Assembly: GCA_964522625.1 (NCBI GenBank)
Contig: CAZFWS010000001.1
Coordinates: 1 to 43,293, forward strand
Reading direction: 5' to 3'
Length of the DNA stretch: 43,293 bases
Source of the DNA: an uncultured Candidatus Peribacteria bacterium
GTDB lineage: Bacteria; Patescibacteriota; Gracilibacteria; BD1-5; UBA6164
A model generated the notes under the pieces. That model ran no database searches. It saw only the letters and a program-made list of their open reading frames with translations, and was not told the DNA's origin. Positions 1 to 43,293 of the stretch are shown in pieces; position 1 is the stretch's first letter, and each line of letters starts with the position of its first letter. The position numbers and the translations under genes were made by a program.

Positions 1-141
1 AAAAATATCATCACAGATAAAACCAATTTTTTGATCCCCAATAGCCATTGCTACTCATCAAAAAAGTCTACTTTTCCTGGGGTTTGGAAACACAGATAAT
101 ACATCGGTAATGTAATTGATAAAACCTTTTGAAGAAGACAT
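1..141 (-). CDS. TfoX/Sxy N-terminal domain protein (first 47 codons; gene continues off the left edge)
   Basis: ATG at 141. Translation MSSSKGFINYITDVLSVFPNPRKSRLFGGVAMAIGDQKIGFICDDIF fits the TfoX_N pattern (R.MFGG...g..fa.i.dd). The conserved GG is encoded by TGA-TGA (55-60). Confidence 0.7.
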
Positions 142-161
142 AATGTTGTAATTAAAATTTT

Positions 162-497
162 CTATATCTGCATATCAACGATTTCCATCAACTCTATATA
201 CGCTCCTACTGTTTTAGTATGAGGATTAGACCCAAGGATTTCAAGTGCTGCATCCTTGTCGGGTGCTGACAATATAGAGTACCCAGCAATCTCGTTAGAA
301 CACTCCTCGATAGTATTATCACTACTCACTCGAGTATTTTTTCATACAGGATTCCCTGGATCAACAAAACTATCACTGTGTTCTGTCATCCATTCCACCC
401 ATTCCTGCATATCTTGATCCTATTGTTCCTGAGTAACATTTGACCATTTTTTAAATGCCTCAGCATTTGCCCCATAAATAAGAAGAAATTTTTTCAT
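162..497 (-). pseudogene. YCII/DGPF-family small protein with an in-frame TAG (420-422)
   Basis: The 112-codon frame runs from ATG 497 to TAG 162-164. It reads MKKFLLIYGANAEAFKKWSNVTQEQ[TAG]DQDMQEWVEWMTEHSDSFVDPGNPVGKNTRV...GAYIELMEIVDMQI. Both halves look like one YCII-type protein, and there is also one TGA=Gly. Confidence 0.5.
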
Positions 498-547
498 AAT
501 TCGTGTGATGAGAAAATATACTGAACTATTATATATAATTACTTAAA

Positions 548-586
548 AACACCAACTACTAAATAATAGTAATTGGTGTTTTTTTG
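548..586. terminator. bidirectional stem-loop downstream of the tRNA
   Basis: aacaccaaCtact / agtaAttggtgtt forms a 13-bp stem with one mismatch and a 7-nt loop. It is flanked by an A-run on the left and a T-run on the right. Confidence 0.6.
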
Positions 587-595
587 AAAATTTTA

Positions 596-674
596 TGGAG
601 CGGGGGACGAGGTTTGAACTCGCACACCCGAGGGTTGAAGCCTCAGTACACTCACTCTTTTATGTTACCCCCGC
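596..674 (-). tRNA. tRNA-Gly(UCA), the UGA-decoding tRNA, with encoded CCA
   Basis: The reverse complement GCGGGGG-TA-ACAT..GTGT-A-(C)TGAGG-CTTCAAC-CCTCG(G)-GTGT-GCGAG-TTCAAAC-CTCGT-CCCCCGC-T-CCA folds as a cloverleaf. It has a 7-bp acceptor stem, a TTCAAAC T-loop, a short variable loop and an anticodon loop C-T-[TCA]-A-C. G1:C72, C2:G71, G3:C70 and U73 are bacterial tRNA-Gly identity elements. Confidence 0.85.
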
Positions 675-808
675 AAAAATGTATGGTAGCACAGATATGA
701 ATGCGTGAGATAGTATATAAAAATAAGTCGTGATTGCAAGATGATTATTGCATTTTTTCTATAAAAGAGGTATACTATATCTATACTACTTATCATTACT
801 ATTATATC

Positions 809-1531
809 ATGTTTGAATATCTGAAAGCACGTATTATCGAAAATATCTATTCTGGATTTTTATCTGGTCTAGAAGTCTATATTCCAAAGATTCTCTCTGC
901 TATTGCTATACTGGGTATCGGTTTATTGGTTGCTATAGGAACCTATAGAATGGTCCTCTATATTTTTTGAAAACTCAACCTCAACTCGCTCTTAAAAAAA
1001 TTTGAGATAGATATCATTGATGATGATAACAAAAAAGAGAAAAAAAATACTGAAAAAAAGATACATTTTTGAGCTAAAATAAGTAAAAAAATTAAAATAG
1101 AAGAAATTATTGCCAAGGCAATGTCCTACTATATCTTCCTGGTATTTTTTCGTTTTTCTATTGTTGCTATTGGAATCACTGAAGTAGAAAATTTTCTCCA
1201 AGACCTAATAGCCTATATTCCAAGCCTATTTATCGCGATTGTAATAGGATTCTTTGGTCTCAGATTTGCAAACTTTATCTATGATATTACCTACCATACA
1301 CTCAAAATTACCAAACAAAAAACCAGCAAAATCATAGCCAGTGGTGCAAAAATAATTATATTATTTTTCACTCTTATGATTGTACTGGATTATACAAAAA
1401 TTGTGGATGATTTTATTATCAATACTATATTTGTTGGGTTTATCACTACCCTCACTATTGCTGGATGACTCGCATTTGGACTGGGTTGACGAGAAGTTGC
1501 CAAAGAAATACTCGAAAGTTTTCGAAAATAA
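809..1531 (+). CDS. conserved-TM-helix repeat membrane protein (MscS-related family)
   Basis: Track ORFs 734-970 and 1121-1468 are in the same frame and are joined by TGAs. The C-terminus TIAGGLAFGLGGREVAKEILESFRK matches the ..LGLGGRD.A..iL motif of the family. There are several hydrophobic helices. The start is taken at ATG 809 (MFEYLK), since the upstream MQDDYC.. extension looks non-coding. Confidence 0.75.
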
Positions 1532-1556
1532 TCCTGATATCAGGATTATTTTTTTA
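1530..1556. terminator. bidirectional terminator between convergent genes
   Basis: Perfect palindrome aatcctgat/atcaggatt (1530-1547) followed by a T-run. It sits exactly between the stop at 1531 (+) and the stop at 1554 (-). Confidence 0.7.
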
Positions 1557-4079
1557 TTGTGGAATTTGAAACACGGATCACCTACTATATATCTCTGAAC
1601 CATCGGGTGAGGTAATAGCTGGAAAGATAATATCACATGGTCTCAGGGATGAAATAAAATCAATCGATTGATCACAGGGACAGCTCGTACATGAAGTATT
1701 TCATACAAAGGCACTTCCTCCATCATAGAGACAACTCTGATGTAAGTGTGTTTTGCTCGGGGATAATTGACAAATACGCTGTCAGGACTGGTTAGAGTCG
1801 CATATATATCCATCACTACAATCACTATTCTGAGTACATATTTGTTCAAAAAGTGGACACCCAGCGTTGGCACTATCTCAGGCAATTCCTGGACATACAT
1901 CATCACAATCATTCACCCCATCTCCATCACGATCTCAACCACAACTGATTCATACCACACTCACGAGTAAAGTAGCAGAAAGTGTATTATCGTCAGTATC
2001 ACTCACTACTAGTTCTATTTCATAGGTTCATATTTGAGTAAAAATATGATCGATAGTACTTCCTATACCACTATTTCCATCTCCAAAATCCCATACATAC
2101 GAATATTTACCACTTCCTCATGATACGAGAGCATTCAATCCTACTTGAAGTGGACCCGCTCCATAAATAGGATCAGCCTCTATCGAAACACTGAGATCAT
2201 CTTGTTGACTCTCAATAATAGGACTCGTTCATATAAAAGAGAGGGTATTATAGGTACTCCCTGTATTTCAACACTGATCGGTCACATCCAATCTCACGAC
2301 CCAGTCTCAGCCAGTAGCAAAATCATAGTTATCGATATATTTTCCATATCTCTGTACTTCTTGACCCGTAGATTGGTTTAAAAATCTCCATATATATCCG
2401 TCTGGATCTAATACTCATGATGCACAGACTCCATTTACTTCTGAGCCAAAATCAAATACTGTATCATCTGTGTTTCATAAATCGACATCTGCTTCAGAAC
2501 AATTCAATCACTGCGAACAGGACTCATCATATACATTAATATCTATCATGAGATTAATATTCTCTCATGAAGTATCTGTACTTCCGTCTGGAAATACAAT
2601 ATGGTTATGCACTTCCCCCGTGTTTCAACACTGATCTGTTACTTCTAGGATTACGACCCAGTCTCATCATGTCGCAAAATCATAGTTATCGATATATTTT
2701 CCATACCTCTGTACTTCTTGACCCGTAGATTCATTTAAAAATCTCCATACGTATCCATTGGGATCTGATACTCATGACTCGCAGACTCCGTATACTTCTG
2801 AGTCAAAATCAAATACCGTATCATCGGTACTTCATAGGTCAGTATCAGTTTCGGAACAATTCGATCACGGTGAACATGCTGCATCGTATATGTTAATATC
2901 TAACAGTAAATTTACATCGCCTCATAAAACATCACCACTTCCTCCTGGAAATGAAAGACTATTATATACTTCTCCGGTATTTCAACACCGATCCACAACC
3001 CGAAAAATAACTCTCCAGTCTCATCATGTCGCAAAATCATAATTATCTACATACCGTCCATAGCGAAATACTTCTTGCCCAGTTGATTGATTTAAAAACC
3101 TCCATATATATCCATCTGGATCTGACACTCATGATTCACAAACTCCTTGAATCTCGGATCAAAAATCAAACGTAGTCACATCTGTGTTTCATATATTTCT
3201 GATATCCCCTTCCACACAATTCGATCACTCTGAACATGTTTCATCGTATATATTAATATCTATCGCTAGATTATTTTCCTGAATATCGCGACAATTATTT
3301 GCTCTGAGAATAACATATGCTATCTGTAGAAAATCCTCCCGTGTTACCAAAGAATCCGGATAGAGTTTATTATTCTGTTTTTCAATCAATCGATATATCT
3401 GTTCATTTCAATTCGGATCAACATCTAACAGTTCATACTCGAGGGCTCGTTGAAAATCTGGATAAAATGAATATACGCTCCCATCTTCATTCCGTACTGA
3501 TACATCATCCGATAAATCAGCTGTGATTTGATTATTTTCGATCTGACTCCGAATCAGATCTGCCTGTTGATTGGTTAAAATTCCTGATGCTCTCAGTACA
3601 ACGGCCAGTGCTTCTTCGAGTAAAATCGTATTGTTTGGACAAAATGGTACTCATCATGATTGACTCGTTCCATCGTCACATACAGATCCTGGTTGATATC
3701 CACTCACATATCACCGATCACTCGCTCATGCAATACAATAAAAATATTGATTATTTGAATATACATCAAAAAATGGTTGAGTATTTGCATATGTCTGTAT
3801 GAGATCCAAACTGACATCAGGTTGAATACATTCTTCACAACTAATCTCTGTCAAGATTCATACAAATTCCTCTCGTGTCAAAAGTGCTGTTGGATTAAAA
3901 GCACCATGTTCATCTGGGACGATCGTTCCTCCATCATATAAGAGTTGTAATTGATCCAAATATGGGTAATTTCGATCGATATCTGAAAAAATATTTTCTA
4001 CCTCTAGCTGAGCAGAAAATACTTGTGTTCATAGGAACAAAAAGCTGATAACACAGAATAATAATCTTATGAACATCAT
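1554..4079 (-). CDS. secreted cell-surface protein: signal peptide, SLH-like repeats, 3 tandem PKD-like repeats, PKD domain, TSP3-type Ca-binding repeat, Cys-rich C-terminal domain
   Basis: 841 codons from ATG 4079 to TAA 1554-1556, with many TGA=Gly. N-terminus MMFIRLLFCVISFLFLGTQVFSAQ. SLH-like FSDIDRNYPYLDQLQLLYDGG..FNPTALLTREEFVGIL. PKD signature GSGKYSYVWDFGDGNSG..GTYEIELVVSDTDDN. TSP3-like DRDGDGVNDCDDVCP. Confidence 0.85.
2220..3290 (-). repeat. three tandem in-frame 357-bp (119-codon) coding repeats inside the surface-protein gene
   Basis: The landmark atcgatatat / atcgatatat / atctacatac recurs at 2331, 2688 and 3045, a period of 357 bp. At protein level the unit is ..IDINIYD..CS.G.NC.E.D...GNTD.T.FDF.SE..GVC.SGV.DP.GY.WRFLN.STGQEV.RYG.Y.DNYDFATGGDW.V...V.D.CGNTG. 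Outer boundaries are approximate. Confidence 0.8.
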
Positions 4080-4089
4080 GAATAAATAA

Positions 4090-4536
4090 TTATAGAGCAT
4101 ACATAACAATTCCAGCAGCCACCGATACATTCAGGCTCTCTTTTTTTCATCTCATAGGTATGATAATATTTTTATCCGAGATGTCTAATAAATCTGGATG
4201 AACTCCAGTGATTTCGTTTCACATAATGAGACATATTTTTGTATCATTATGATTAAATAGTTCTCTATAATCTACGGCATCATCAGTGAGTTCCACACAA
4301 TATATTTGGTATCACTGTTGTTGTATTTGTGCTACTGCTTCATTCACATCACTATAGTATTCCCATTCTATCCAGTCTTGTGCTCCCAGGGCTGTTTTTG
4401 ATATATCATTTCGGGGTGGTGTCGGAGTATGTCAGGTGAGAATCATTTTTTCAAATCCTGCCCCATCACAATTACGAAAAATCGCTCCAACATTTTGCAT
4501 AGAGCGGATAGAATCAAGCAATATAATTTTTGACAT
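4090..4536 (-). CDS. SpoU/TrmH-family RNA 2'-O-methyltransferase
   Basis: MSKIILLDSIRSMQNVGAIFRNCDGAGFEKMILTGHTP...LIMGNEITGVHPDLL..IIIPMRGKKESLNVSVAAGIVMYAL carries the three SPOUT motifs. 148 aa, 4 TGA=Gly. The stop lies 10 nt upstream of the surface-protein start. Confidence 0.85.
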
Positions 4537-4646
4537 AAAAATAGCTACAAAAGATAATTCAATCTAATAGTAGCTATTTTATGGTCTAATGCAATGGATT
4601 ATTAAGAGAAGTATTTTTTTCTTATCGTTGAATAAGGAGGATTTTT

Positions 4647-5105: not shown

Positions 5106-5255
5106 AATTTGCTTCAAAATATATAATTAAATATCATAATAAATGTTATATAATTATTGTCAATACTTTCTCTCTGAAAAAATATTACTCTCTCTACCAC
5201 TTTTACATTATTTTGCTATACTCTATATAATTTCTAAATACTAATCCGTACGTAT

Positions 5256-7691
5256 ATGTCAGAAGCTCTTGTTATAGCAATAATCATTTCCATTGGGATT
5301 ATCTGTGGTATCGGTTTTGTATTTTTACGGATAAAAGAAAATTATAAACGTACTTTGAGTCTAACATTTTTACAGGTCACACTTCCAAAAAAAGAATCAG
5401 ATAGCGATGAGCGAAAAGAAACACAAAAAGATTTTAAAGAGATGATCTCTATTATGGAGCAATTATATTCATCCCTTAAAAGTCTCTATTCAAAAAAAAT
5501 ACTCAAAAAAATACTCTGACAGGATACGATTAGTTTTGAATATGTTGCTCACGAATGAGAAATTCGGTTTTTTATTGTGGTGCCAAAACACTATAAACAC
5601 TTGATAGAAAAACAAGTAAACGGATTTTATGCAGATGCGATTATAGAAGAAACCACTGAAATAAATATATTTAAAGGCAGATCAAAATATGCAGCGACAT
5701 ATATCAATACAGCCAAAGAATATTTTTTCCCGATTAAAACATACCAAAAACTCGAATCGGATCCTATTAATAATATCACCAATGCATTTTCTAAACTCGA
5801 AGAGGATGAATCAGCGGTAATACAAGTACTCCTACAGCCTATCGATGATGATTGGCAATCAAAATGTATCAAGGCATCACGTCAAATCATGCAATGAAAA
5901 AAAACCTATTTTAGTTTGAATCCTTTTAAAATTCTTCTGGGTATTTTTGAACTTTTTACCAGCTCATCAGATGACAATAATCAAAATCCACAAGATGATC
6001 ACTCATCAGCCCTCACCCAAGAAAGAGCAAAAACAGTAGATGAAAAATGAGACAAAAGTGGTTTTACAGCCATTGTAAGAATCATTGCTACCGGAAATTC
6101 TCAGCATATGGTAGATACCGAACTGGTAAATATTACGTCTGCTTTTTCACAGTTTTCCTATCCTGAGTTCAATAAATTTACCACCACTCTCCGACATTCA
6201 GAAAAAAAATTGATACATAACTATATATATCGGTATTTTAAAAAGCCCATGTATCTCAAAAAAATGATTCTCAATACAGAGGAGTTGGCCTCTATATTTC
6301 ACTTTCCTCATATCAGATATAATCAGACTCCTGAAATCAAGTGGCAAAATTTTAAAATCACCAAAGCTCCGAACAATATCCCAAAAGAGTGAATGCTGCT
6401 CGGGCATAATGTTCACCGATGAGTCAAAAAAGAAATCCGTATAAAAAATGAAGATCGATTCCGACACTTTTATGTTATCGGACAGACTGGTACTGGTAAA
6501 TCGAGTATCATGCAGGTGATGGCCAGACAGGATTTAGCAAATGGAAATGGTCTCTGTATTATGGATCCTCATGGTGATCTGGCAAAAGATCTCCTCCCCT
6601 TTATTCCCCGAGAGCGAGCAGATGATGTGATCATATTTGATCCCTCTGATACCGATCGACCACTTGGGCTTAATCTGCTCGAAGCCAAAAATCCAGAGGA
6701 TCATGATATGGTCGCACTCAATGCTATGAATATCATGATTAAACTCTTTTGAAGTGAGATCTTTGGTCCGCGAATTCAGGACTATTTTCGAAATGGGGTG
6801 ATGACATTGATGGCACATCCAGAATGATGAGCTTTGACTGATATTGTCCGCTTATTCACCAACGATGATTTTAGACGAGAACGAGTCAATAAACTCAAAA
6901 ATCCTATCGTAAAAGGATGGTGGGATAGTACCTATGCCAAGATGTGAGAACGAGAAAAATGAGAGATTATTCCCTACTTTGCTGCAAAATTTGGTGGCTT
7001 TATTACCAATGAAATGATGCGAAATATCATCGGGCAACTTGATTCTAGTTTTGATATTCTCGATATCATGCAGAATAAAAAAATACTCATGGTAAACCTG
7101 AGTAAATGAAGTATCGGTGATCTGAATTCAGAGCTCCTGGGTATGATTCTCGTCAGTAAAATACAAATGGCTGCCATGGGTCGAGACAAGATTCCAAAAG
7201 AGGATCGAACTGATTTTTTTCTCTATATTGATGAGTTCCAAAACTATGTTACTGACTCTATTGAATCTATTCTATCAGAAGCACGAAAATACCGATTAGG
7301 ACTTACCATTGCCCATCAATACCTCGGTCAATTAGAAAAATCTGACGCACTTACTAAATCAAACACCAACCTCAAAGATGCCATTTTTGGTAATGTTTGA
7401 TCTATTATGAGTTACAAGATCTGACCACAGGATGGAGAATTTATGGAAAAATACTATGCCCCAGTATTTTGAAACCAGGATTTAGTGAATATGGATAAAT
7501 TCAAAGCCGTTATGAAACTATCTGTTGATAACCAACCAACGGTTCCTTTTTCAGTGATTCCTCAAAATCCATATCTCGAAACCGGTGATCCAAAATTAGC
7601 CGATGCATTTAAAGAGCTCTCACGTCTCAAACATGGTCGAGATAAAGCATTTATTGGGAAAGAGATTGAGTATCGGATTGGGAGTATGTAG
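5256..7691 (+). CDS. VirD4/TraD-like (T4SS coupling-protein type) P-loop ATPase with N-terminal TM helix
   Basis: Six track ORFs (5256, 5577, 6108, 6510, 7143, 7485) share one frame and are joined only by TGA. The result is 811 aa ending at TAG 7689-7691. Walker A is YVIGQTGTGKSS, Walker B is DFFLYIDEFQNY, and there is RKYRLGLTIAHQYLGQL. The N-terminal helix is MSEALVIAIIISIGIICGIGFVFL. Confidence 0.8.
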
Positions 7692-7701
7692 AGAGGTATT
7701 G

Positions 7702-8778
7702 TTATGTAGGTATATATTCTTGAATATCATCAAAAACATATACACTCGATTTTCATATTTGTTCTTTTCAGATTCAACATATTTTATCTGCTCCATGAAC
7801 TAAAAAATTTACAAAATCATTTTTTGCTTCAAAAGATATCTCTCTTTTTTCACTTACATCGTCATCATCATTATTTACATTTTCTATATGAGTATCAACA
7901 GAATCAGCATATAATCACTCAGCAATATCTAAATCAGAATCCCTCATATCTATAATTCCTGAAGTAAAAGTCACTGGATATTGGCTTATATTTTTTGTAG
8001 ACACATTGAGTAACTCTTGTGCCTGTTTTAAAAAGATACGTTGTTCTGAAATAGAAAGTGTTGAAATAATAATAAATTCATCTCATCATAATCGACAGAT
8101 AGCTGATTTTTGCTTGTATTTTTTACCAATCAACTTATTAATTGTAGTGGTAAAAACCTTGAGAACCTTGTCTCATAATTTATGATCTCAATTATTATTA
8201 TACCGTGAAAAATCATCCAAATCAATATATGTAATAGTAGTATTTACAGCACTATCATCTAGGGATAGTAAAAGTCTTTTTTCTAATATATTATAAGCTC
8301 ATATTTTATTTCTCACTCATGTTCATACATCAATTCCAAAATCAATATCATTCTCATTTTGTAATTTAAATAGCTCTACTTCTGCTTTTTTAAAATCATT
8401 CCCGACATCGTAACGAGTTTTTTGCTCATCTTCTTTAATTTTTAAGAGTCTATCTATATGCATACGACTTTGTGCAATAATACTACTACATGGTCCATCA
8501 TTACACTGCTGTGATCAGAGAGAAGCGATAGTTTGATCTAATGATTTTATAATACGATTTGATCTATCTAGCATAGATTGTAATTTATGCACTTCTCTGC
8601 ATTGATCTTGAACAATAGCATAAACTTCCTGAATAGATGTTTTTGTTTCATGTGGAGCACGATGCGTACAACGTTGTTCGATATTTGGGTCTATTTTAGC
8701 GGTCATTCCTCACATTTTTGTATCTTCAAAATTACTACCAGGAACAACGTGTGATGCTTTGGGTCATTTTTTTATCAT
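7702..8778 (-). CDS. GGDEF-domain diguanylate cyclase with coiled-coil N-terminal region
   Basis: 358 codons from ATG 8778 to TAA 7702-7704 (alternative start at 8706). The motifs are YIDLDDFSRYNNNGDHKLGDKVLKVF and AICRLGGDEFIIIS (canonical GGDEF). Several TGA=Gly codons include the first two G of GGDEF. Confidence 0.8.
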
Positions 8779-9312: not shown

Positions 9313-10404
9313 ATGGATTTATACAGTGTTTTAGAAGTAGAAAAATGAGCCTCAAAAGATGAAGTTAAAAAAGCGTACCGAAAACTCGCTATGAAATATC
9401 ATCCAGATAGGAATGCTGGTGATAACGAAGCAGAAGAAAAATTTAAACAGATCAACGAAGCCTACCAAGTCCTCTCAGATGAGAGTAAGCGACAACAGTA
9501 TGACACCTATTGAAGTACTGGAGGAGGAGCTCAATGATTTGGATGAGGGGTCGATGTTGATATATCAGATATATTTGAGTCATTTTTTGGTGGATGAGGA
9601 TCGCGAACAGGAAGAACTGCCAGGCCACAAGAAATGAGATGAGAAGATCTCGAATATAGAATGTCTATTGATCTCAAAACGAGTATCTATGGTGGGAAAC
9701 AAACGATCTCTTTTGAAAAAGAAGCATTTTGTAAGAGCTGTGATGGAGTAGGATGAAGTGGAAAAAAGACCTGTCAAACCTGTTCTGGAACAGGACAAGT
9801 TACACATACACAACAAAGTGTATTTGGAACCATTCAACAACGGACCGTATGTCATGATTGTCAGTGAACCGGTGAAATATTTGAAACCGTCTGTGATGCT
9901 TGTCACGGGACCAAAAGAACCCAAATAAAACATGAAATAGAAGTCGATGTTCCTGCAGGAATTGATGATGGAATGGTGATTAAATTAACAGGAGAATGAA
10001 ATGATGGGATAGGAACAAAAGCCAGTGGAGATCTGTATATCAAATGTGCTGTTTCTCTCGAAGAAAAATGACTCGCCCGAGATGGAGATCAGCTCTATTA
10101 TAGCCTAGAAATAGATATCGTAGAAGCAGTTCTATGAACCAATAAAGACATCAATATTCCAATTATAGGGAAGCGAAATATCAACATCCCGGCTGGAAGT
10201 AATCATGGAGATGTGATCTCGTTTTATGGAGATGGAGTGAAAGACGTACAAAGAGATCATAAATGAGATCTCCTGATTACACTCACCATTAAAGTTCCAA
10301 AAAAACTCTCCTCAAAAGAAAGAGAGTTCTATGAGAATATCGCAAAAGAGCGAAAAATTAACGTCAACAATAAAAAATGAGTACTCGAAAAAATATTTGG
10401 TTAA
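9313..10404 (+). CDS. dnaJ: molecular chaperone DnaJ
   Basis: J-domain [34 protein letters not shown], a G/F region, and four CxxCxGxG zinc-finger repeats. 363 aa. TGA sits at conserved Gly positions (e.g. 9754-9756 and 9865-9867). Confidence 0.97.
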
Positions 10405-14553: not shown

Positions 14554-16200
14554 ATGCATTTAAACATTAAAATTACTGGTCCAGCAGGTCTGGGGATGAA
14601 CTCTACAGCAGATATTATATCGCATATTTTTGCAGATATGGGATATCTCGTATCGGGTGATAACGAATATCAATCACTGATTAAATGAGGACTCAATTGG
14701 TTTGACCTTAACATCAGTGATACGGCTATGACACTTGAAAAAGCAACCGATATCATCATTGCCTTTAATGATAAAAATCTGGAAAATACGCTCCCTGTTC
14801 TCAAGGACTGAGGATATGTTATCGTCAATAAAAAATTCTCAGATAAACTCACTGGACTCGAAAAATATAATGTACTTGATCTGGAAATCCAGGATAAATA
14901 TGACAATACGTATTTACTCTGAATGTTAGCAAAATTACTCTGATTTCAAGAATCTCTGATGCTCGATAAAATCGAACATGTTTTTGCACGAAAATGAGCA
15001 GATGTTGTAAAAAAGAATCAAGATATTGTATCAAATATCTACGCAACCTATGAGCTTCCACATACTTCACCCTATAGTATCAAATCCGTTGGACCAGCTA
15101 GAAAAATAAGCTACGGAAACAAGGCTCTGGCATGGTGAGCCATCGAATCAGACCTAGAATACTACGCAGCCTACCCTATGACTCCTGCCAGCACCATTCT
15201 ATCAGAAGTCGTCAACTCTAAAAAGATCACTTATCTACAAGCAGAAGACGAGATCTCAGTCATAAACTCAGCCCTCTGAGCCAGCTATACCGGTGCCAGA
15301 AGTATGGTCGGAACCAGTGGTGGATGATTTGCCCTGATGAGCGAAGCACTCAGCTTTGCTGTACAAGCTGAAATTCCAGTCGTAGCCGTTCTGTCACAAC
15401 GAGCCGGACCAAGCACGGGTACTCCAACATTTCATGAACAAGGAGACCTGCACTATGCACTCAACCCAACCTTTGGTGATTTTGAACATATTGTACTCTA
15501 TCCTTCTACACTTGAAGAAGCCTATTATATGAGTGGTCAGGCACTGAATCTAGCAGATAAATATCAAAATCCTGTTATTTTACTTATGGATAAACAATCG
15601 AGTGAATTTCATGGAACTATTCTGGATGAAACTCCTTGTGAAGTAAATAGAGGAAAAATGATCGATACTCCTGCAGAGGATTATAAACGATACGAACTTA
15701 CCGATGATGGAATATCTCCTCGAGTGAAAGTAGGAACAAAAAATGGTGATTTTATCGCAACATCCTACGAACATGATGAGTATGGTGCTACCACTGAAGA
15801 ATCATCGATGCGCATGGCTATGACAGAGAAAAAATTCAAAAAACTTGAAAATTTCTTTGAAAAAGAATGAATTTCAGGATATGAAGTTATCAATCCAACA
15901 GCAAAGAAAATGCTTCTTACAACGAGTTTCACTTCGTACAATGCAAAAGAATTTATCAAAAACAACCCAGAATTTGGTCTGATTCTTGTTAAATTCCTCA
16001 AACCACTCGATCACAGATTAATAGATGATCTCAAATGAGTCGAAGAGCTTATTTTCCTCGAAAGCAACTACTCTGGTCAACTCGAAAACTATATGACCAA
16101 AGAGTTAGGGTTGAAACATATTTCAGGGTTAAAAATATCTCACAAGAGAAAATATGACCTCTATCCATTCTATATGGAAGACTTAGAAGAATTAAAGTAA
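14554..16200 (+). CDS. korA: 2-oxoacid:ferredoxin oxidoreductase, fused gamma-alpha subunit
   Basis: 548 aa. The gamma-like N-terminus is MHLNIKITGPAGLGMNSTADII, and the alpha core has YAAYPMTPASTI and GTSGGGFALMSEALSFA..EIPVV. The frame was verified codon by codon across about 12 TGAs. Confidence 0.9.
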
Positions 16201-16288
16201 CCCATCCCCTCTCCACTCCGTTACGAGGGACTTCCCTTAAAAAGGGAAGAATATTATTTGAAAATCAATTATTTTATAAGAAATAAAC

Positions 16289-16891
16289 ATGCGAAGCTGA
16301 TTAACAAACATACAATGGTGTCCTGGGTGTGGTGATACACTCATTATTATGGCACTCAAAAACGCGTTTAAAGAGCTCGAAATAGAGTCACATAAACGAG
16401 TGGTGGTTTCGGGTGTTGGATGTAGTGGAAAAGCCAGTCAATATGTGGATGGATATGCGGCTGAAACCCTCCATGGTCGAGCGCTTCCCTTTGCAACAGG
16501 TATCAAGCTCGCTCAACCAGATATGAAAGTAGTGATTATGTGAGGTGATGGTGATGGCTACGGAATAGGAATGGGGCACTTCATACACTCATGTCGACGA
16601 AATCTCGATATGGTCTACCTGGTATTCAACAATGAAAACTATGCCCTCACCACAGGACAAGCCAGTCCTACGACCCCTATCGGAGCCAAAACAAAAACAA
16701 CTCCCGATGGAAACACCGTAGAGCCGTTTAATCCTCTCGAGATTGCTACAAAAGCTGGATGTCATTTTGTTCGAAAAGCAGACTCTATCAAGTTCCAAGA
16801 ACTCAAAGATATTATCAAAGAAGCGATTGAATTCCCAGGGTTTGCTCTGGTTGATATCCATCAAGCGTGTCCGAGTTTTAAGAGGTGGTAG
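16289..16891 (+). CDS. korB: 2-oxoacid:ferredoxin oxidoreductase beta (TPP-binding) subunit, short form
   Basis: The motifs are WCPGCGD, GVGCSGK, the TPP motif GGDGDGYGIG..NNENYALT, and ..QACPSFKRW followed by TAG 16889-16891. It is only 200 aa. Confidence 0.9.
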
Positions 16892-24789: not shown

Positions 24790-25335
24790 ATGTTAGATAA
24801 AGCAACTGATGGTATACAAAAAACTATCAAACACCTCGAATATGAATATTCAAAATTACAAATGTGACGAGCTAACCCAGCTATTGTTGAAGATATTATG
24901 GTGGATCAATATGGATCACTCCAACCACTGCAAAACATGGCTTCTGTATCAAACATGGACTCACAAACTCTTTCTATTAAACCATGGGATAAAACAACAC
25001 TCACTGCTATTGCAAAAGCTATTTCTGATTCTGGACTCGGTTTAAACCCTCAAACCATGGCTGATAGCATCATGATTAAAATACCAGCTCTCACAGAAGA
25101 AAGAAGAAAAGAAATATCAAAAGTAGCCAAAAAACTCGCAGAAGATGCAAAAGTATCTATTCGAAACGTACGAGGAGATGTACATAAAATGATCAAAAAA
25201 GCAGCGGACGATAAAGAGATCAGTGAAGATGAACAAAAAGATAAAGAAACAGAACTGCAAAAACTTATCGATGAAGCCAATAAAAGTATCGATACTCACT
25301 ATAAAAACAAAGAAGCTGATATTATGAAAGTATAA
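24790..25335 (+). CDS. frr: ribosome recycling factor
   Basis: 181 aa: MLDKATDGIQKTIKHLEYEYSKLQMGRANPAIVEDIMVDQYGS...LNPQTMADSIMIKIPALTEERRKEISK..IRNVRGD. Confidence 0.95.
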
Positions 25336-28253: not shown

Positions 28254-28311
28254 ATGATTTAAAAATAAAAATATTGGCTATGTGTAGCCAATATTTTTAT
28301 TTTTAAATCAT
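28254..28311. repeat. perfect inverted repeat, 27-bp arms with a 4-nt loop
   Basis: ATGATTTAAAAATAAAAATATTGGCTA-tgtg-TAGCCAATATTTTTATTTTTAAATCAT. The right arm abuts and overlaps the yebC stop codon (28311-28313). Confidence 0.9.
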
Positions 28312-29081
28312 TATGTCCGGAATGTATTTTTTTCTATAAATTCATCTGCTTCCCCATTCAACTCTGCTGAAATAATCTCATTTGATGATACGATATTCAC
28401 ATCTTCATCTTCTTCAAATGCATAGAGCATTTTTTTAAATTTCAACACGTTATCAAAATCAGTGAGTTCAATCTCATTTTCAGGAACAAAATCCAGTTTT
28501 GACTCTAAGGTTTCGATATTTTTTTCACTCAACACCTGTTCTACTTGATGAAAATCTTCTACAGTAGTAATAATCTTAATATATTCTGGTTCTGAAACGA
28601 TATCCTCCGCAGCCGTTTCAAATATAATTTCTTCTATATCTTCATACGCATGTACCTGTGGATCAATAAATATCACTCATTTTCGATGAAACATCCATGA
28701 TACAGCACCATTTTCTCACATATTTCCTCCATATTTTGTAAAAATATGACGGATATTCCCTACGGTTCTATTTTTATTATCCGTCAAAGTAGAAACCATC
28801 ATAGCAATACCTCCAGGAGCATATCCCTCATATACAATTTCGGATATTTGAGCAGCTGATTTATCTTCTCAGGTTCATTTTTTGATGGCCCTATCGATAT
28901 TATCATTTGGTACTCCTGCTTTTTTAGCTGTGGTAATAGCAGATGCTAAAGATGGATTTTGATCCGGATCTCATCACTTCACTGCTGCAATAGCAATCAA
29001 TTTTGCATGCAGAGAAAATATTTTCCCTTTCACTGAATTAACGGCATCCTTTCGGGCTTGTATTACTGGTCCTCGTCACAT
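28311..29081 (-). CDS. yebC: YebC/PmpR-family transcriptional regulator
   Basis: 256 aa. The motifs are [52 protein letters not shown] and [37 protein letters not shown]. Multiple TGA=Gly codons include the conserved GG. Confidence 0.92.
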
Positions 29082-29923: not shown

Positions 29924-30517
29924 CTAATTATTGGGTAGGATACGTTCGGCAAAGGTAAATTGAAATGTTTCCGTATTTTTAGCGGCTATTTCCGAGCGAA
30001 TTCATTTCTGTACTGCTGGTCGAAGCCTGAGTACTCAAGTAACTTTCGGTATTGGCTCCTTCGTCATATACCATATGATCGACTCAACAGCCACACGACT
30101 ATTGGTAATAGGTCACAAATGTTGTACATATAAAATACAATTATTACTGATATCAGCACACTGAGATGAGGTGGATCGAGTCCAATCACCATGCGTATTT
30201 TGCTGTGCCAAATAATATTTATTACTTCATGTTTCTAAACCACTTCACTCTTTCCATCAATCAGTAGCAAATCCATATGGATCTGTTGTATCTTCTGATA
30301 CTCAGATTATTCATGATTCAGTAATATCTGCTGAGATGCGCTCTACAATCGACTTAACATTCTCCTGCATCGCTCGATGAATATCAGCAGATCGAGTTAC
30401 TTGTTGCACGGCCATAAAGGTCGCAATAATAGAGACCATAATAATAGAAATAATTGATATCGTCACTATTATTTCTATGAGGGTAAATCATTCGAGAGAT
30501 GTGTTATATTTTTTCAT
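29924..30517 (-). CDS. prepilin-type N-terminal cleavage/methylation domain protein (PulJ/PilW-like pseudopilin)
   Basis: MKKYNTSLE-G-FTLIEIIVTISIISIIMV. The cleavage-site Gly is TGA (30488-30490). 197 aa. Confidence 0.8.
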
Positions 30518-30526
30518 ACTATATTA

Positions 30527-31114
30527 TTAAAGTCTTCTCCAATCAGTCAGAATAGTACTGACTTCAAAACGATGTTCTCATTTACTTCTCCATTCTACTA
30601 CTGAGCGTATTTTTTTTGCCTCAGAGATACCTGGAACATCACTGATTTCTATATACCGATACAATGGAGTCAAAGTATGAGATGAATCTATGGGATCACA
30701 GTACACATACCTCCCTTTTTCATCTGAGCATATACGATATGATTCAATATCAGTGATATCATCGATATTTTCTACTCAAGTAGGAAAAGTATTATTTGAT
30801 GTCACTGTAAAATCATGATAGATTTTGTAAAATCCATTTCAAAAAAATGAATCTGGATCAGCTACACTTCAAAGAGGGTCCATCTGCATATATGGTTTCA
30901 ACTGATCATAATTACTATCACGAATATGTCGCATGAGTTCTATTTGTTCTTTTCATAGATTCGTGGCAACACTGTAGTGTCTGTTATAATCACTCATACG
31001 AATCGTCGACTGAATAACAGCATACACTGCTACTAATCATAAGGTAAATATAAAAATACCAATTAAAACTTCGATAATAGAAAATCAAGATATGGATGAT
31101 TGAGTATGCTTCAT
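30527..31114 (-). CDS. prepilin-type pseudopilin (PilV/GspI-like)
   Basis: MKHTQSSIS-G-FSIIEVLIGIFIFTLGLVAV. The cleavage-site Gly is again TGA. 195 aa. Confidence 0.8.
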
Positions 31115-31117
31115 AGA

Positions 31118-31666
31118 CTAGTAATCAACGATATTAGTTTGAGTAAAATATTTCAGAGTAGTATAGAGCGGACTCGATTCATCTGCATCTGAGAATGCAT
31201 ATGCTATAGAAAGAATATCCTCAGAGAATCTTTCAGGAGTCCCTACAGAATCCAGATAAATATAACTTCCTGATCCACTGATAGCCTCAAATAAGAAGAG
31301 TGCATTATCCTGTCATTGTATAGCACGGATTTCAACCCCTACTGGTAATGGTCTTGTTTCGAGCAATATTCATAAAGTCGGATCAATAATAATAGATTCA
31401 TATGGATATCCATAAAAAGAGAGTTGGTGTCGAGTAGATGCATCAGTATTAATATACAGTCATACCGATAAATTTGATCCTGAAGCAGTTCCTGAAACAG
31501 CGAGGTTTCGTGCTTCGTATAAACTTTGAGAAAGTTCTTTCCCCGCTTGTTTTACAGCCAATTTTTTTCATTGATAGGCATATGGTACATAGGTCAATCA
31601 AAGTATCACAAACAACAGTGTCAGGGCTACCATGAGTTCAATAAGTGTAAATGCCCGAGTATTCAT
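31118..31666 (-). CDS. prepilin-type pseudopilin (GspH/FimT-like)
   Basis: MNTR-AFTLIELMVALTLLFVILG. 182 aa. By hand count, 5 of its 13 Gly codons are TGA. Confidence 0.75.
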
Positions 31667-31726
31667 ATATATTTTATCCACTAAAAAAATAGAATTTTTC
31701 CAACAAAATTCTACTGTAAAAACAAA

Positions 31727-31756
31727 AAAACTCAAAAGAAATATTTGAGTTTTTAT
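31727..31756. terminator. bidirectional terminator downstream of pilC
   Basis: aaaactcaaa-7 nt-tttgagtttt is a perfect 10-bp stem with A/T runs on both sides. Confidence 0.7.
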
Positions 31757-31774
31757 TGTATATATCTATGAATC

Positions 31775-32881
31775 TTAACCAACTACTGCAGTAACCTTGA
31801 GAATAGCACCTAAAATAGCAAAGGCAAACCAGAGAACAAACACACCAGCAATGAGGAGAGCTATTGGTTCAATCCACTTCGTTACATTTGAGAGAGAATA
31901 ATCCACTTCTCGTTCATATTGACTGGCCATTTTTGCTCCAATTTTTTCAATAGATGCGGTTCGTTCTCATACTGAAAGCATTTGCAGGAATGAAGCGGGA
32001 AAATACTGTCCGTCAGTATTGACTTCTTCCATAGCAGCAACAACTCATTCTCACTTTGAAACGGCATCTCCGATCTCATCAAATAGATTTTCATAGAGAG
32101 GGCTTCGACTGGATCTTCCTACTAAAGAAAGTGTTTTTACAAAATTTACTCATGCTCATGTCAGACTGGAAAGCGTAGAGGAAATATTAGAGAGAATATA
32201 GTTTTTATATACCGTCCCAACAAGTGGAACAGCAAATAACATCATCTCTAATCTGGCATGTCCAGATGGTGTGTTTTTATACCCAATAAATGAAAACAAA
32301 CTGGCTGTCACTATCAAAATCAATAATAAGATATTATCCGCAACAAAATCAGATGCTCCAATCAATATTTTTGTCGCAAGTGGAAGCTCTACATCAGCTG
32401 TCGCAAAAAGTGGCTGAATAGAAGGTACTACATAAGTTAACACTACTGTAATAGCGACAATCAGCATACTAAAAATAATTATTGGATATGTCATTGCTCC
32501 ACTAATTTTTTTTCGTAGTTCTTCTCGTTGTTTCATGTCATTCGAAAGTTTTGAGAGTGATTGAATCAATCCACCTGTTTCTTCCCCTGCTTCAATAATA
32601 GATATTTCTGATAGATTAAATATTTGTGGGACTTTTTTCATGGCACGCGACAAAGAATCTCATGATTCAATATACACCATGATATCATGAATTTTTTGTT
32701 TAAAATAAACACTCTCTAGTTTTTCATGTACTGATGTCAAACTTTCTGAAAATGATACTCATCCATCGATCATCACCGCAATATATTCATAAAAATTTGC
32801 CTTATCTAAAATAGAAACCTTTTTTGAGACAAAGATATTAGAATGAAGAATCGAATCATTTTTTTGTGTATTGTTAGTCAT
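31775..32881 (-). CDS. pilC: type IV pilus assembly platform protein PilC (GspF family)
   Basis: 368 aa. There are two GspF repeats (..AVMIDGGVSFSESL.., ..IIEAGEETGGL.., ..LSVGERTASIEKI..), three TM segments, and the C-terminus ILKVTAVVG. Confidence 0.92.
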
Positions 32882-36968: not shown

Positions 36969-36974
36969 AGTGTA

Positions 36975-37731: not shown

Positions 37732-37764
37732 AATATAATTTTTAATAAGTATTAGTCTATTTCT
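37725..37764. repeat. 40-bp direct repeat, copy B (spans murA stop to lipoprotein start)
   Basis: Identical to 37172-37211. It contains the last 13 nt of murA (..GAAATAGAC TAA), the 20-nt intergenic spacer and ATGAAAA of the downstream gene. Confidence 0.95.
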
Positions 37765-39011
37765 TTAATATTTGCACCGAGTGAGCTCAAATTTTTCACA
37801 AGATCCTCATATCCTCTATGAATATACTCTACATTGGTGATTTTTGTTTCACCTTCAGCGATCAACCCGGCCAATACCATAGCTGCTCATGCGCGCAGAT
37901 CCCAGCTGGTCACGGTGGTACCAGAGAGTTTTGATGGCCCAAAGATGAGCGCTTGATGTGGATTCATGAGTGCGACATTGGCATGCATTTTTTCCAGTTC
38001 TACGAGAAAATTGAGTCGCTGTTCGAACAATACTTCGTGTATCTTACTCACTCCGGCTGCTTGTGTCATCAATACTGAGAATGGTGACTGGAGATCGGTT
38101 GGAAATCATGGAAATATATTGGTTTGAATAGATACCGGAGTAATTTTCTTAGCCTTATATACTCGTACACTGTCAGTTCATATTTTTTCTATTTCTACTC
38201 ATGCTTCCTGTAATTTGAGCCTAAATGAATAGAGGTCTTCATAACATGCATTATGAATATCGATATATTTTTCTGCTGAGAGTGCTCCCATAATCATATA
38301 GGTCCCTGACTGAATATAATCAGAAACAATACTAAAATCTTGTTTTTGTGGGTGGAGTTCTGTAACTCACCGAACGGTAATAGTATTATTGTATCCGAGA
38401 GTAATATCTGCTCAGAGACTATTGAGAAAATCAACTAAATTCATCACATGTGGCTCACCAGCAGTCAAAGAAATAGTTGTTGTTCATGATCGTAGTACAT
38501 TCGCAACAATCAAATTCTCGGTTGAAGTAACACCAAAACCAGCATCTATATGGAGATCTCCACCTGACAATTGACCATGTAGTTGAATAAGATCATCTGA
38601 GAGATCATATTTATACCCTATGTTTTTTAGTCCTTCTAAATGACTGTCAATCGGTCGTTTTCATAAATAACAGCCCCCTGGCATGGGAATCTGTATTTTT
38701 CACAAACGAGTTAATAATGGTGCTAACAGCAAAATAGAAACACGAATTTTCTTGATCTTATCAAAATCAAAACCAGATTCATACAATTGGCTCGCATCTA
38801 ATGTGAGACAGTTATCAACAAATGTATGCACTACCCCGATATCTGATAAAATATCTAAAAACGTAAACACATCCCCTATAGCAGGAACATTATGAAGAAT
38901 CGTTTTTCCAGGAACTAAAAGTGATGCTGCAATAATAGGCAGTGCTGCATTTTTAGATCCTCCTATATGTACCTCTCAGCAAAGAGAGGCCGGTCATTGA
39001 ATCGTAAACAA
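37752..39011 (-). CDS. murA: UDP-N-acetylglucosamine 1-carboxyvinyltransferase
   Basis: About 419 aa. The motifs are FTIQGPASLCGEVHIGGSKNAALPIIAASLL, ..KIRVSILLLAPLL.., ..GGCYLGKRPIDSHL, ..TENLIVANVL, ..FPGFPTDLQSPF and ..RGYEDLVKNL. There is no in-frame ATG near the N-terminus, so a TTG at 39011 is assumed. Confidence 0.9.
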
Positions 39012-39047
39012 GATATCAGAATATAAGGGAATAAATAACTTTAATAC

Positions 39048-39120
39048 TGTCCAAAAGTATAGTAAAAAAAAATATTTTTTCAATTTTGATTTTTGTTTTT
39101 TTTTCGTATACTTTTGGACA
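39048..39120. promoter_or_regulatory. 14-bp perfect inverted repeat pair flanking a 45-nt A/T tract in the divergent murA / 39166 intergenic region
   Basis: tgtccaaaagtata (39048-39061) and tatacttttggaca (39107-39120). Confidence 0.4.
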
Positions 39121-39165
39121 TATTTTAGACCCCAACTATTACTTTGATAAACTCATTCTACTGAT

Positions 39166-41079: not shown

Positions 41080-41112
41080 TTATTTAGCTTTCTCTAGCAT
41101 ATATACGCACCC

Positions 41113-41721
41113 ATGAAAATATTTGTATTTGATACCGAAACCACTGGTTTTATCAATAAAAAAAATCCCAGCCTAGATGCACAACCAAAAGTTGTTCAGT
41201 TCGCTGGAATACTTGGAAGTCTAGAAAATGGTACCTATACTGAAATTGAGCAGATTAATATGCTCTTTAATCCTGAAATACCTATTCCATTTGCAGCATC
41301 CCAAGTACATCATATTTATGATATTGATGTCAAAGATGCTCCAAAAATAAGTGAACAAATAGATGCTGTAATGAGCATGATCAATCAAGCTGATGTTATT
41401 GTGGGTCATAATATTGAATATGATGAACAAATGATCCTCTTAGAACTCAAGAGGCTCGAAAAAGAATATCTCTATCAACCTCAGCAAGTAGTTTGTACTA
41501 TGAAAACTTCCGTTGATTTCTGTGCCCTTCAATGAAATGGAGCTCGTTTCAAATACCCAAAACTGTGAGAACTCCATAAAAAACTCTTTGATGAATACTT
41601 TATCGGAGCACACGATGCCATGACTGATGTCCAGGCAACCCTTCGCTGTTTTATAGAACTGGTAGATAAAAAAGTGATTGTCCTAGAAAAAAAGAAAGAA
41701 GAAGTAATGAGTTTATTTTAA
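41113..41721 (+). CDS. DnaQ-like 3'-5' exonuclease (DEDDh family)
   Basis: 202 aa. ExoI is VFDTETTG, ExoII is VVGHNIEYDEQM, and ExoIII is GAHDAMTDVQAT. Confidence 0.85.
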
Positions 41722-41739
41722 TTCCCTTAATACCATATC

Positions 41740-41967
41740 ATGACTAATTACGGATGACTGATCAATGTAGAAGAATTCGGAGACAAACGAGATTATTTTG
41801 TACCAGATCGATGAGAAATATCATTTTATTGTAAAGATTGTAAAAAAATAGTACAAACTCAGAGACCAAAACCAAATGAGTATATATTTATATGTGAAGT
41901 TTGTGATAGTTTAAATATCGCTATATGAACAGAAGAATCCCTTAAGACGAAGTACAAAATAAAATAA
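41740..41967 (+). CDS. small zinc-ribbon protein
   Basis: 75 aa with two CxxC pairs: YCKDCKK...ICEVCDS. 4 TGA=Gly. Confidence 0.5.
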
Positions 41968-42033
41968 AGTTTTGACAAAACTATACACAATATATACACT
42001 ATTTATATACCTTATATATTTACCACACAATAC

Positions 42034-43020
42034 ATGAACAAAAATGACGCATTACAGAGTGCACTCGACCAAATCGAAAAACAATTTTGAAAAGGATCTA
42101 TTATGAAAATGGGAGACAAAGACGGAGGAATGAAGATCGAAACATCGAGTTCTGGTTCAGTCGCTCTCGATATGGCTCTCGGAGGATGATATGCTAAAGG
42201 AAGAATCGTAGAAATATATGGACCAGAATCCTCTGGTAAAACGACGCTCACTCTTCATGCTATCGCAGAAGTACAAAAAGCAGGATGAACCGCAGCATTT
42301 ATCGATGCAGAACATGCACTCGACCCAGAATATGCCAAAAAAATTGGAGTAGATACGGATAATATGCTGATCTCTCAACCAGACTATGGTGAACAAGCAC
42401 TTGAAATAGTAGATTCACTCGTGCGATCTGGTGCCGTTGATCTGATCGTTGTTGATTCAGTTGCTGCCCTCACTCCAAAAGCAGAAATCGAAGGAGATAT
42501 GGGTGATTCTCATATGGGTCTACAAGCACGACTCATGTCACAAGCGCTTCGAAAAATCACAGGTACTATTAGTAAAAGTGGAACCACTGTTATCTTTATC
42601 AATCAAATCAGAATGAAGATTGGAGTTATGTTTGGTAGTCCAGAAACCACGACTGGTGGGAACGCGCTTAAATTCTATGCTTCACAACGAATTGATGTGC
42701 GACGAAAGGCTAAAGTAGAATCAGGAACGGGAATGGAAAAAGAGATCTCAGGAAATCTCACCAAAGTAAAAGTCATTAAAAACAAAGTGGCTCCTCCATT
42801 TAAAGAGGCTGAATTTGATATCATGTATAACGAAGGAATTTCTAAAGTATGAGAACTGGTCGACATAGGGGCTGATCTCGGAGTCGTTAAAAAAGCTGGT
42901 GCATTTTACTCATATGGTGAAACAAAGCTGGGTCAAGGACGAGAAAATGCAAAGAAATTTTTAAAAGAAAATGAAAAACTAGCAAATGAGATAGAAGAAG
43001 TAATTAAAAATAGTGTATAA
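42034..43020 (+). CDS. recA: recombinase RecA
   Basis: 328 aa. The motifs are [68 protein letters not shown] and [33 protein letters not shown] is at LGG-G (42187-42189). Confidence 0.98.
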
Positions 43021-43021
43021 A

Positions 43022-43049
43022 AAAATAATGCCGAGCTCGGCATTATTTT
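43022..43049. terminator. bidirectional terminator after recA
   Basis: Perfect palindrome aaaataatgccgag/ctcggcattatttt followed by a T-run. It lies between convergent stops at 43020 and 43051. Confidence 0.8.
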
Positions 43050-43050
43050 T

Positions 43051-43293
43051 TTATTTTTTATTACTTTTTTTCTTAGGCATATTGAGAATATGTTCTTTTT
43101 TCTCTGGTATGAGATTCAAAACATCTCATACCCAAAGGTTATCTCATTTAATGCCATCTTCTGGATCAGCATCTTGTCAGAGTCGTGTTGCCATAGTACC
43201 AGGTTTTTGATAATCAACCACTGCATTTACAATACGAGCGATATCTTGATCATTATCAACATCATAGTGTTTTTTAACAATTCCCCAAAGTGT
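43051..43293 (-). CDS. hypothetical protein, C-terminal 80 codons (gene starts beyond the right edge)
   Basis: The open frame runs to TAA 43051-43053: ..TLWGIVKKHYDVDNDQDIARIVNAVVDYQKPGTMATRLGQDADPEDGIKGDNLWVGDVLNLIPEKKEHILNMPKKKSNKK. 3 TGA=Gly. Confidence 0.5.

Follow-up and report, generated by a model that had tools for sequence, protein, structure and literature searches.

Predicted glycine decoding of UGA in a 43-kb chromosomal fragment of Gracilibacteria

What does the codon TGA specify in the 43,293-bp stretch of DNA analyzed here (contig CAZFWS010000001.1, hereafter the window; 34% GC)? The original prediction, made from the letters of the window, held that TGA is a sense codon for glycine throughout. 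We find it nearly certain that UGA serves this organism as a fifth glycine codon and that UAA and UAG are its only stops, as in NCBI translation table 25, and we describe the tRNA encoded at 596-674 that would read UGA. Four observations were computed directly: the presence of in-frame TGA, its equivalence to glycine codons, a tRNA with glycine identity elements, and the co-occurrence of this tRNA with recoding across the lineage.

The comparison of open reading frame (ORF) lengths that had been proposed with the prediction was run on the whole window. Under the standard code (table 11) not a single ORF reached 300 amino acids, the longest having 266, versus 20 ORFs of at least 300 amino acids, the longest having 929, when TGA was translated as sense; control translations with TAG or TAA as sense gave zero and one such ORF, respectively. 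Codons were then counted in a set of 37 long ORFs whose ends were defined only by TAA or TAG, after three spurious N-terminal extensions had been trimmed. In-frame TGA was present in 36 of these 37 genes, which table 11 would cut into a mean of 8.5 fragments each. It accounts for 272 of the 12,108 codons and thus for one third of the glycine codons, the remainder being GGA (267), GGT (167), GGG (96) and GGC (17), and counting it raises the glycine content from an abnormally low 4.5% to 6.8%. The density of TGA in frame (22 per 1000 codons) is that of arbitrary frames (about 19-30 per 1000), indicating no in-frame avoidance of TGA whatever. Furthermore, individual Pfam domains extend across the TGA codons from end to end, including RecA (2-262/262), SpoU (3-142/142), EPSP_synthase (2-417/417) and DnaJ_C (1-152/152), each of which spans several of them, as well as RRF (2-164/164) and TP_methylase (1-211/212). 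The 37 genes end in TAA (31) or TAG (6), and for conserved proteins the homologue alignments stop 2-18 residues from these ends; thus, there is no sign of TGA acting as a stop.

Reading TGA as sense also yields long spurious ORFs, both antisense and N-terminal. For example, the ORF upstream of 39011, at 39012-39713 (-), is a spurious extension of murA that overlaps the neighboring gene at 39166-41079 (+), and the spurious N-terminal codons number 234 for murA, 139 for the ABC ATPase gene and 37 for dnaN. Genes predicted in code 25 from ORF length alone are therefore too numerous.

To identify the amino acid at TGA, nine window proteins were translated with X at each TGA and aligned to solved structures from standard-code organisms. 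Deep homologue sets were left out of this tally, which would have been circular because the top 120 RecA matches are all from recoded organisms and have TGA translated as G or W; solved structures and a codon comparison at the DNA level were used instead. Glycine faced TGA at 42 of the 59 aligned sites (binomial P = 5.9e-33 for a glycine background of 8%), and tryptophan and cysteine each faced it at 0 of 59. Glycine was found at every aligned TGA of YebC (6 of 6; structure 1lfp) and TrmH/SpoU (3 of 3; a solved homologue), at most of those of RecA (3 of 4, with lysine at the fourth; E. coli RecA), MurA (8 of 10; 6q03), the ABC ATPase (5 of 7; a solved homologue), DnaJ (8 of 12; 6jzb) and the alpha subunit of 2-oxoacid:ferredoxin oxidoreductase (5 of 8; 5b48), and at 2 of 4 sites in RsmI (a solved homologue) and 2 of 5 in DnaN (7evp). 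For DnaN, the structure search returned nothing at E <= 1e-40 and the match was obtained at 1e-15. Invariant glycines are among those coded by TGA, namely in the ABC signature SGG, the MurA motif FPGFPTD, the DnaJ zinc finger and the RecA motif QFGKGS.

The individual sites cited in the original prediction all proved to be TGA (9865-9867, 9754-9756 and 42187-42189 on the forward strand; 55-60 and 30488-30490 on the reverse strand, where the forward strand reads TCA). The motifs hold as well: CHDCQ-TGA-TG in DnaJ, ALGG-TGA in RecA, the GGDEF motif at 8083-8088 and the glycine at position -1 of the prepilin cleavage sites. A hand count of glycine codons in the pseudopilin-like gene at 31118-31666 was also correct (5 TGA, 8 GGN). 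The codon at 9754-9756, cited as a zinc-finger glycine, is misassigned, being the residue just after the first CxxCxGxG of DnaJ and facing alanine in 6jzb.

The codon comparison, which is independent of any translation, covered 33,369 aligned orthologous codon pairs between the window and the corresponding loci of its relatives. Window TGA codons (n = 771) stood opposite TGA 326 times, GGN 164 times, TGG 8 times and a cysteine codon twice. Conversely, the TGA codons of the relatives (n = 1,389) stood opposite GGN 658 times, TGA 326 times and TGG once. Window GGA faced TGA in 40% of pairs and a glycine codon in 31%, and window TGG faced tryptophan in 77% and otherwise mostly tyrosine or phenylalanine, in agreement with the earlier statement that tryptophan is still encoded by TGG. 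The closest relative taken by itself gave the same pattern. By these exchanges, TGA acts synonymously with GGN, and tryptophan stays with TGG.

A decoder for UGA, on which the original prediction was silent, is predicted within the window itself. ARAGORN reported one tRNA, at 596-674 on the reverse strand, and labeled it 'tRNA-SeC(tca)' because of its UCA anticodon alone. It folds as a canonical cloverleaf whose acceptor, D, anticodon and T stems comprise 7, 4, up to 6 and 5 bp, respectively, with a short variable loop of 4 nt, and the general tRNA model RF00005 aligns with it from end to end (45 bits, E = 1.5e-8 in a search of 401 nt). A search of the whole window against Rfam at gathering thresholds reported no RNA and missed this tRNA; since the tRNA scores 45 bits against a gathering score of 29 in the short search, the speed filters evidently lost a real tRNA. 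The acceptor end carries G1:C72, C2:G71, G3:C70 and the discriminator U73, which are all the elements of the rule by which the tRNA(UCA) of the recoded lineage has been called a glycine acceptor (Shulgina and Eddy, PMC8629427).

The same tRNA was surveyed by a pattern search in one genome per GTDB species, with the acceptor stem, U73 and the anticodon loop fixed by the pattern. The search returned 101 loci, at all of which ARAGORN called a 79-nt tRNA(tca), comprising 26 sequence variants; the titles listed for these loci were Gracilibacteria, 'Peribacteria', Patescibacteria or an unlabeled metagenome-assembled genome (MAG). In an alignment of the window tRNA with the 26 variants, 99.2% of cells were paired, and seven tRNA pairs showed compensatory changes, versus zero or one in controls with slid partners. 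The window sequence is identical to none of the 26; the tRNA of its nearest relative differs from it in the T stem, by a compensatory G-C/C-G swap. The TGA-sense ORF signature was present at 97 of the 101 loci, the four exceptions being high-GC or short loci; ORFs of at least 200 amino acids covered a median fraction of 0.94 of a locus when TGA was sense, versus 0.00 for table 11 and 0.08 for the control with TAG as sense.

The neighborhood of the tRNA is conserved in many of these loci, in the order tRNA(UCA), MscS-like membrane protein, PKD-repeat protein, SpoU methylase and HerA/TrwB-like ATPase, followed in some of them by dnaJ (596-10404 in the window; L005, L011, L017, L070, L086, L096 and others). 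Orthologues of the ATPase, 66-89% identical, adjoin the same tRNA in relatives.

Taken together, these data favor a mechanism in which the dedicated tRNA at 596-674 pairs with UGA through its UCA anticodon and would be charged with glycine by glycyl-tRNA synthetase (GlyRS), as expected from its glycine identity elements. Release factor 2 (RF2), which otherwise terminates at UGA, would be absent from the genome, as the literature on the lineage suggests, and termination at UAA and UAG would fall to release factor 1 (RF1), in keeping with the gene ends (31 TAA, 6 TAG). In the sister lineage SR1, work of 2013 attributed to Campbell and colleagues reportedly showed that GlyRS charges tRNA-Gly(UCA) in vitro. 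A release-factor-family Pfam domain was found among none of the window ORFs, a search confined to these 43 kb; in the literature, no BD1-5 genome was found to contain prfB (Sieber et al., PMC6851277). Glycine at UGA is in fact already known in BD1-5/Gracilibacteria and SR1 and has been a documented lineage trait since 2013: the prediction dates from 2012-2013, proteomic confirmation followed in 2014 (PMC4032931), and the code is now routinely screened for (PMC8629427; gTranslate preprint). In the proteomics, which concerned another BD1-5 bacterium, 97 peptides were unique to UGA as glycine and 3 were unique to UGA as tryptophan (Hanke et al., PMC4032931).

Several observations weigh against a uniform assignment of glycine. 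In the solved homologues, 17 of the 59 TGA sites face another residue (alanine at three; lysine, asparagine, aspartate and serine at two each; threonine, isoleucine, glutamate, leucine, glutamine and valine at one each). In the codon comparison, 36% of window TGA codons face neither TGA nor GGN, versus 25-29% for GGA, GGT and GGG; put the other way, the partners in relatives are TGA or glycine at 64% of TGA-coded sites versus 71-75% of GGN-coded ones, which suggests that TGA-coded sites are somewhat less conserved, or a little noisier. Rare single peptides with tryptophan, alanine, aspartate or lysine at UGA have also been reported (Hanke et al., PMC4032931). The invariance of the acceptor stem, U73 and the anticodon loop over the 101 loci is not independent evidence, since the search pattern fixed these elements; only the D, anticodon and T stems are. 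Finally, charging of the tRNA with glycine is deduced from its sequence, and the support for this organism as a whole is of the same kind.

In one alternative, TGA would mostly mean glycine but its decoding would be ambiguous, either by a near-cognate tRNA-Trp at UGA or by U34 wobble of tRNA-Gly(UCA) at UGG, resulting in a mixed proteome. The single aberrant peptides, the wobble potential of U34 between UGA and UGG (Shulgina and Eddy, PMC8629427), the rarity of TGG (0.40% of codons) and the slightly lower conservation of TGA-coded sites relative to GGN-coded ones are all consistent with such ambiguity. Nevertheless, the glycines coded by TGA include many that are invariant and essential for function, at which frequent misincorporation would be costly, and TGG positions are 77% conserved as tryptophan; decoding fidelity as such lies beyond the reach of sequence. 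We consider a mixed proteome of this sort improbable. Assignment of TGA to tryptophan outright, as in table 4 (Mycoplasmatales and several insect endosymbionts), would make the UCA tRNA a tRNA-Trp. The ORF-length test does not distinguish table 4 from table 25, the protein database translates the contig with W at TGA (P0001, P0121), and TGG does occur opposite 8 of the 771 window TGA codons. The alignment of TGA with tryptophan, which the original prediction had named as evidence that would count against it, was however seen at none of the 59 structural sites. Moreover, the relatives' TGA met window TGG once in 1,389 pairs, versus 658 for GGN, so that TGG and TGA do not exchange, and window TGG faces tryptophan, tyrosine or phenylalanine. 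The tRNA has U73 together with G1:C72, C2:G71 and G3:C70, whereas the tryptophan rule (PMC8629427) needs G73, and tryptophan would destroy the GGDEF motif, the zinc-finger glycines and the prepilin -1 position. The alignments and U73 exclude tryptophan, to which we give a very low probability.

Two further explanations fare worse still. Selenocysteine, implied by the ARAGORN label that the UCA anticodon earned this tRNA, would have to account for 272 TGA codons in 36 of 37 genes, a density of 22 per 1000 codons that is far above any selenoproteome, and for cysteine opposite TGA in only 2 of 771 pairs with relatives and at none of the 59 structural sites. In a tRNA-Sec the acceptor stem is longer and the variable arm is long; in the tRNA of the window the acceptor stem has 7 bp, the T stem 5 bp and the variable loop 4 nt, and RF00005 covers the whole molecule. 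The number of codons, the alignment with glycine and the tRNA geometry exclude selenocysteine, for which the probability left is minute. Smaller again is that of the standard code, with in-frame TGA representing pseudogene lesions, sequencing errors or occasional programmed read-through. An apparent nonsense TAG at 420-422 in one small gene is the kind of lesion that it predicts, yet in the 37 long genes the in-frame stops are solely TGA (272), with no TAA or TAG. In addition, TGA sits on conserved glycines, is kept at 326 sites shared with relatives and from one repeat to the next within the PKD protein, and has its cognate tRNA encoded in the window. Because only TGA interrupts the genes, as the controls with TAG or TAA as sense show, and does so at positions conserved among relatives, pseudogenes and errors are excluded. 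Glycine at TGA, as in table 25, is thus the assignment that we retain.

The predicted tRNA-Gly(UCA) has two unusual features. Its anticodon helix can form 6 bp, the outer pair being C-G in 26 variants and U-A in one, and its 10-nt D-loop, AAAAGAGUGA, contains no GG dinucleotide. Both the 6-bp-capable helix and the GG-less D-loop are conserved at 101 of 101 species loci, and the tRNA-Gly(GCC) that adjoins the tRNA in 23 loci is canonical. This combination has no counterpart in the literature consulted, but it may have been described before. Anticodon-stem length is known to control the reading of UGA by tRNA-Trp(CCA), of which the form with a 4-bp stem reads UGA (PMC13092985). By analogy, the lengthened stem could be a functional determinant of code 25, sharpening the reading of UGA or limiting U34 wobble onto UGG, rather than a neutral quirk, an idea that we regard as unlikely. 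If it were true, the low usage of TGG would fit pressure from UGA/UGG ambiguity. The figure of 0.40% for TGG applies window-wide.

The organism was placed from RecA identity and synteny rather than from a tree. The best 120 matches to its RecA are 79-96% identical. Those with a name are all 'Candidatus Gracilibacteria', apart from a single 'Candidatus Altimarinota', a name that NCBI now uses for that same taxid (363464). Among named genomes, GCA_022448215.1 ('Candidatus Gracilibacteria bacterium' isolate ALOHA_ZT_17) is the closest, with a RecA that is 92% identical. It is syntenic with the window over the pilin, PrsW, murA, a 625-amino-acid gene, an RNase T-like gene and recA, and again in a second region around the tRNA. 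In addition, the 1-kb contig BBAY86_10083038 of JGI metagenome 3300001201 matches a portion of the window exactly. In GTDB, recoded organisms form the class JAEDAM01, with orders BD1-5 and Absconditabacterales (gTranslate preprint). By these measures, the window is a chromosomal fragment of Gracilibacteria (BD1-5, GTDB class JAEDAM01), which narrows an earlier lineage call that was right in outline. A phage or plasmid origin was considered and is ruled out by the presence of dnaN, recA, murA, dnaJ, frr, rbfA, rsmI and an FtsQ-type POTRA-domain gene.

Table 1. Coordinates of features in the window and the evidence for each
Feature	Coordinates	Strand	Evidence
Chromosomal segment; TGA predicted as sense (glycine), stops TAA/TAG only	1..43293	.	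ORF test, codon counts
Putative terminator hairpin between A run and T run, directly 3' of tRNA	534..583	-	Read from sequence and alignment
Predicted tRNA-Gly(UCA), UGA decoder	596..674	-	79 nt, encoded CCA; ARAGORN, RF00005, fold
858-amino-acid secreted PKD-domain protein; 36 in-frame TGA (42% of its Gly codons)	1554..4130	-	Pfam PKD
811-amino-acid HerA/TrwB-like ATPase; 15 in-frame TGA	5256..7691	+	Pfam DUF87, TrwB_AAD_bind
GGDEF-domain gene	7702..8778	-	Pfam GGDEF, E = 3.3e-12
GGDEF motif, both glycines TGA (RL-TGA-TGA-DEF)	8083-8088	-	
dnaJ; 13 in-frame TGA	9313..10404	+	Pfam DnaJ, DnaJ_CXXCXGXG, DnaJ_C
dnaJ TGA, first Gly of CxxCxGxG zinc finger (CHDCQ-TGA-TG)	9865-9867	+	
2-oxoacid:ferredoxin oxidoreductase, whole locus	14554..16891	+	Pfam POR, POR_N, TPP_enzyme_C
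Oxidoreductase alpha subunit; 10 TGA	14554-16200	+	
Oxidoreductase beta subunit; 2 TGA	16289-16891	+	
dnaN (beta sliding clamp); 5 in-frame TGA	21011..22141	+	Three Pfam beta-clamp domains
frr (ribosome recycling factor); one in-frame TGA	24790..25335	+	Pfam RRF 2-164/164, E = 2.8e-55
rbfA (ribosome-binding factor A)	25937-26272	+	Pfam, E = 2.5e-13
HU-type DNA-binding protein	27885-28166	-	Pfam, E = 1.1e-32
yebC/TACO1-family; 7 in-frame TGA, tandem pair at 28971-28976	28311..29081	-	Pfam
Type IV pilus / type II secretion cluster, with three pseudopilin-like genes	29924..32881	-	Pfam T2SSF, N_methyl
Prepilin cleavage -1 Gly coded by TGA in two pseudopilin-like genes	30488-30490, 31085-31087	-	
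pilC-like T2SSF gene	31775-32881	-	
murA; 11 in-frame TGA	37752..39011	-	Pfam EPSP_synthase 2-417/417
recA; 4 in-frame TGA	42034..43020	+	Pfam RecA 2-262/262, E = 1.9e-133
recA TGA sites (QF-TGA-KGS; ALGG-TGA)	42088-42090; 42187-42189	+	

The features are listed in Table 1; the hairpin directly 3' of the tRNA, which lies between an A run and a T run, is probably a terminator. The PKD-domain protein contains a tandem repeat at 2259-3146 with a period of 357 bp and 2.5 copies, giving three internal repeats of 119 amino acids. These repeats keep their TGA positions, with FAT-TGA-TGA-DW in two and FAT-GGN-TGA-DW in the third. The frr, rbfA and HU-type genes sit in what seemed to be intergenic gaps. 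An L33-like ORF at 25411-25605 (-) had no Pfam match, and its label is unconfirmed. At the very start of the window, the tandem TGA at 55-60 attributed to TfoX is real (RLF-TGA-TGA-VAMAIGDQ), but the attribution itself gained no Pfam match for the 47-codon fragment at 1-141 (-).

The claim that TAA and TAG never interrupt genes stands for the large genes but not for a small conserved ORF of 111 codons at 162-497 (-), which has an in-frame TAG at 420-422. Two uninterrupted 111-amino-acid homologues (P0122 and P0123; 68% identical) have glutamine at this position, and the TAG may have arisen from CAG by nonsense mutation, or may reflect polymorphism or misassembly. In the database, the called protein is limited to the 82-amino-acid part downstream of the TAG (P0121, 165-419). 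The ORF matched no Pfam family and had no homologue in the 105 fetched loci.

The value of the assignment is practical. Table 11 breaks the genes of the window into 8.5 pieces on average, and table 4 turns 272 glycines of the 37 long genes into tryptophans, including catalytic and structural glycines of RecA, MurA, DnaJ, ABC ATPases and the prepilin cleavage sites; proteins translated with table 4 would make poorer queries for homology searches and poorer input for structure prediction and for family profiles. The earlier warning that a standard-code annotation would be almost entirely wrong is justified and extends beyond the standard code, for the protein database has tryptophan at TGA: its recA product (P0001) reads 'QFWKGS' and 'ALGGWYAKG', and P0121 reads 'NPVWKN', as under table 4. 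The protein P0123 of a relative likewise has W where the window has a GGN glycine. Given this mistranslation and the ARAGORN label, we recommend that table 25 be used for the contig and that the tRNA be relabeled tRNA-Gly(UCA).

Several known systems invite comparison with the window. Selenocysteine recoding shares with it the codon UGA and the anticodon UCA, but is site-specific, depends on a selenocysteine insertion sequence (SECIS) and employs a structurally distinct tRNA, whereas the use of TGA in the window appears genome-wide, has no special context and involves a tRNA of the ordinary elongator type. In the lineages that use table 4 (Mycoplasmatales, Hodgkinia, Zinderia, Nasuia, Stammera and others), UGA has similarly been captured by a UCA tRNA in small AT-rich genomes, and the literature describes the loss of RF2; the difference lies in the amino acid, which is predicted here to be glycine rather than tryptophan, and in the tRNA identity set, that of glycine (U73) rather than that of tryptophan (G73). 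The extended code of Absconditabacteria (SR1) is closer, with UGA as glycine and the same type of tRNA(UCA), and in that group CGA and CGG are predicted to specify tryptophan as well, as is also reported for some Gracilibacteria (PMC8629427). Tryptophan at CGA and CGG was ruled out for the window, with limited data for CGG. CGA is the commonest arginine codon despite the GC content of 34% (126 codons, 10.4 per 1000) and faces arginine or lysine in 86% of pairs. CGG, in a small sample of 27 codons, faces arginine or lysine in 67%, with tryptophan outside its six commonest partners, and aligns in solved homologues with a conserved arginine in RsmI and with a lysine in MurA. Unlike in Absconditabacteria, therefore, both codons appear to remain arginine. 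The closest match is table 25, the code of SR1 and Gracilibacteria (JAEDAM01), from which nothing essential separates the window: UGA is predicted to be glycine and UAA and UAG the only stops, the tRNA(UCA) carries G1:C72, C2:G71, G3:C70 and U73, the GC content is low, RecA puts the window in Gracilibacteria, and TGA is as heavily used as the commonest GGN codon.

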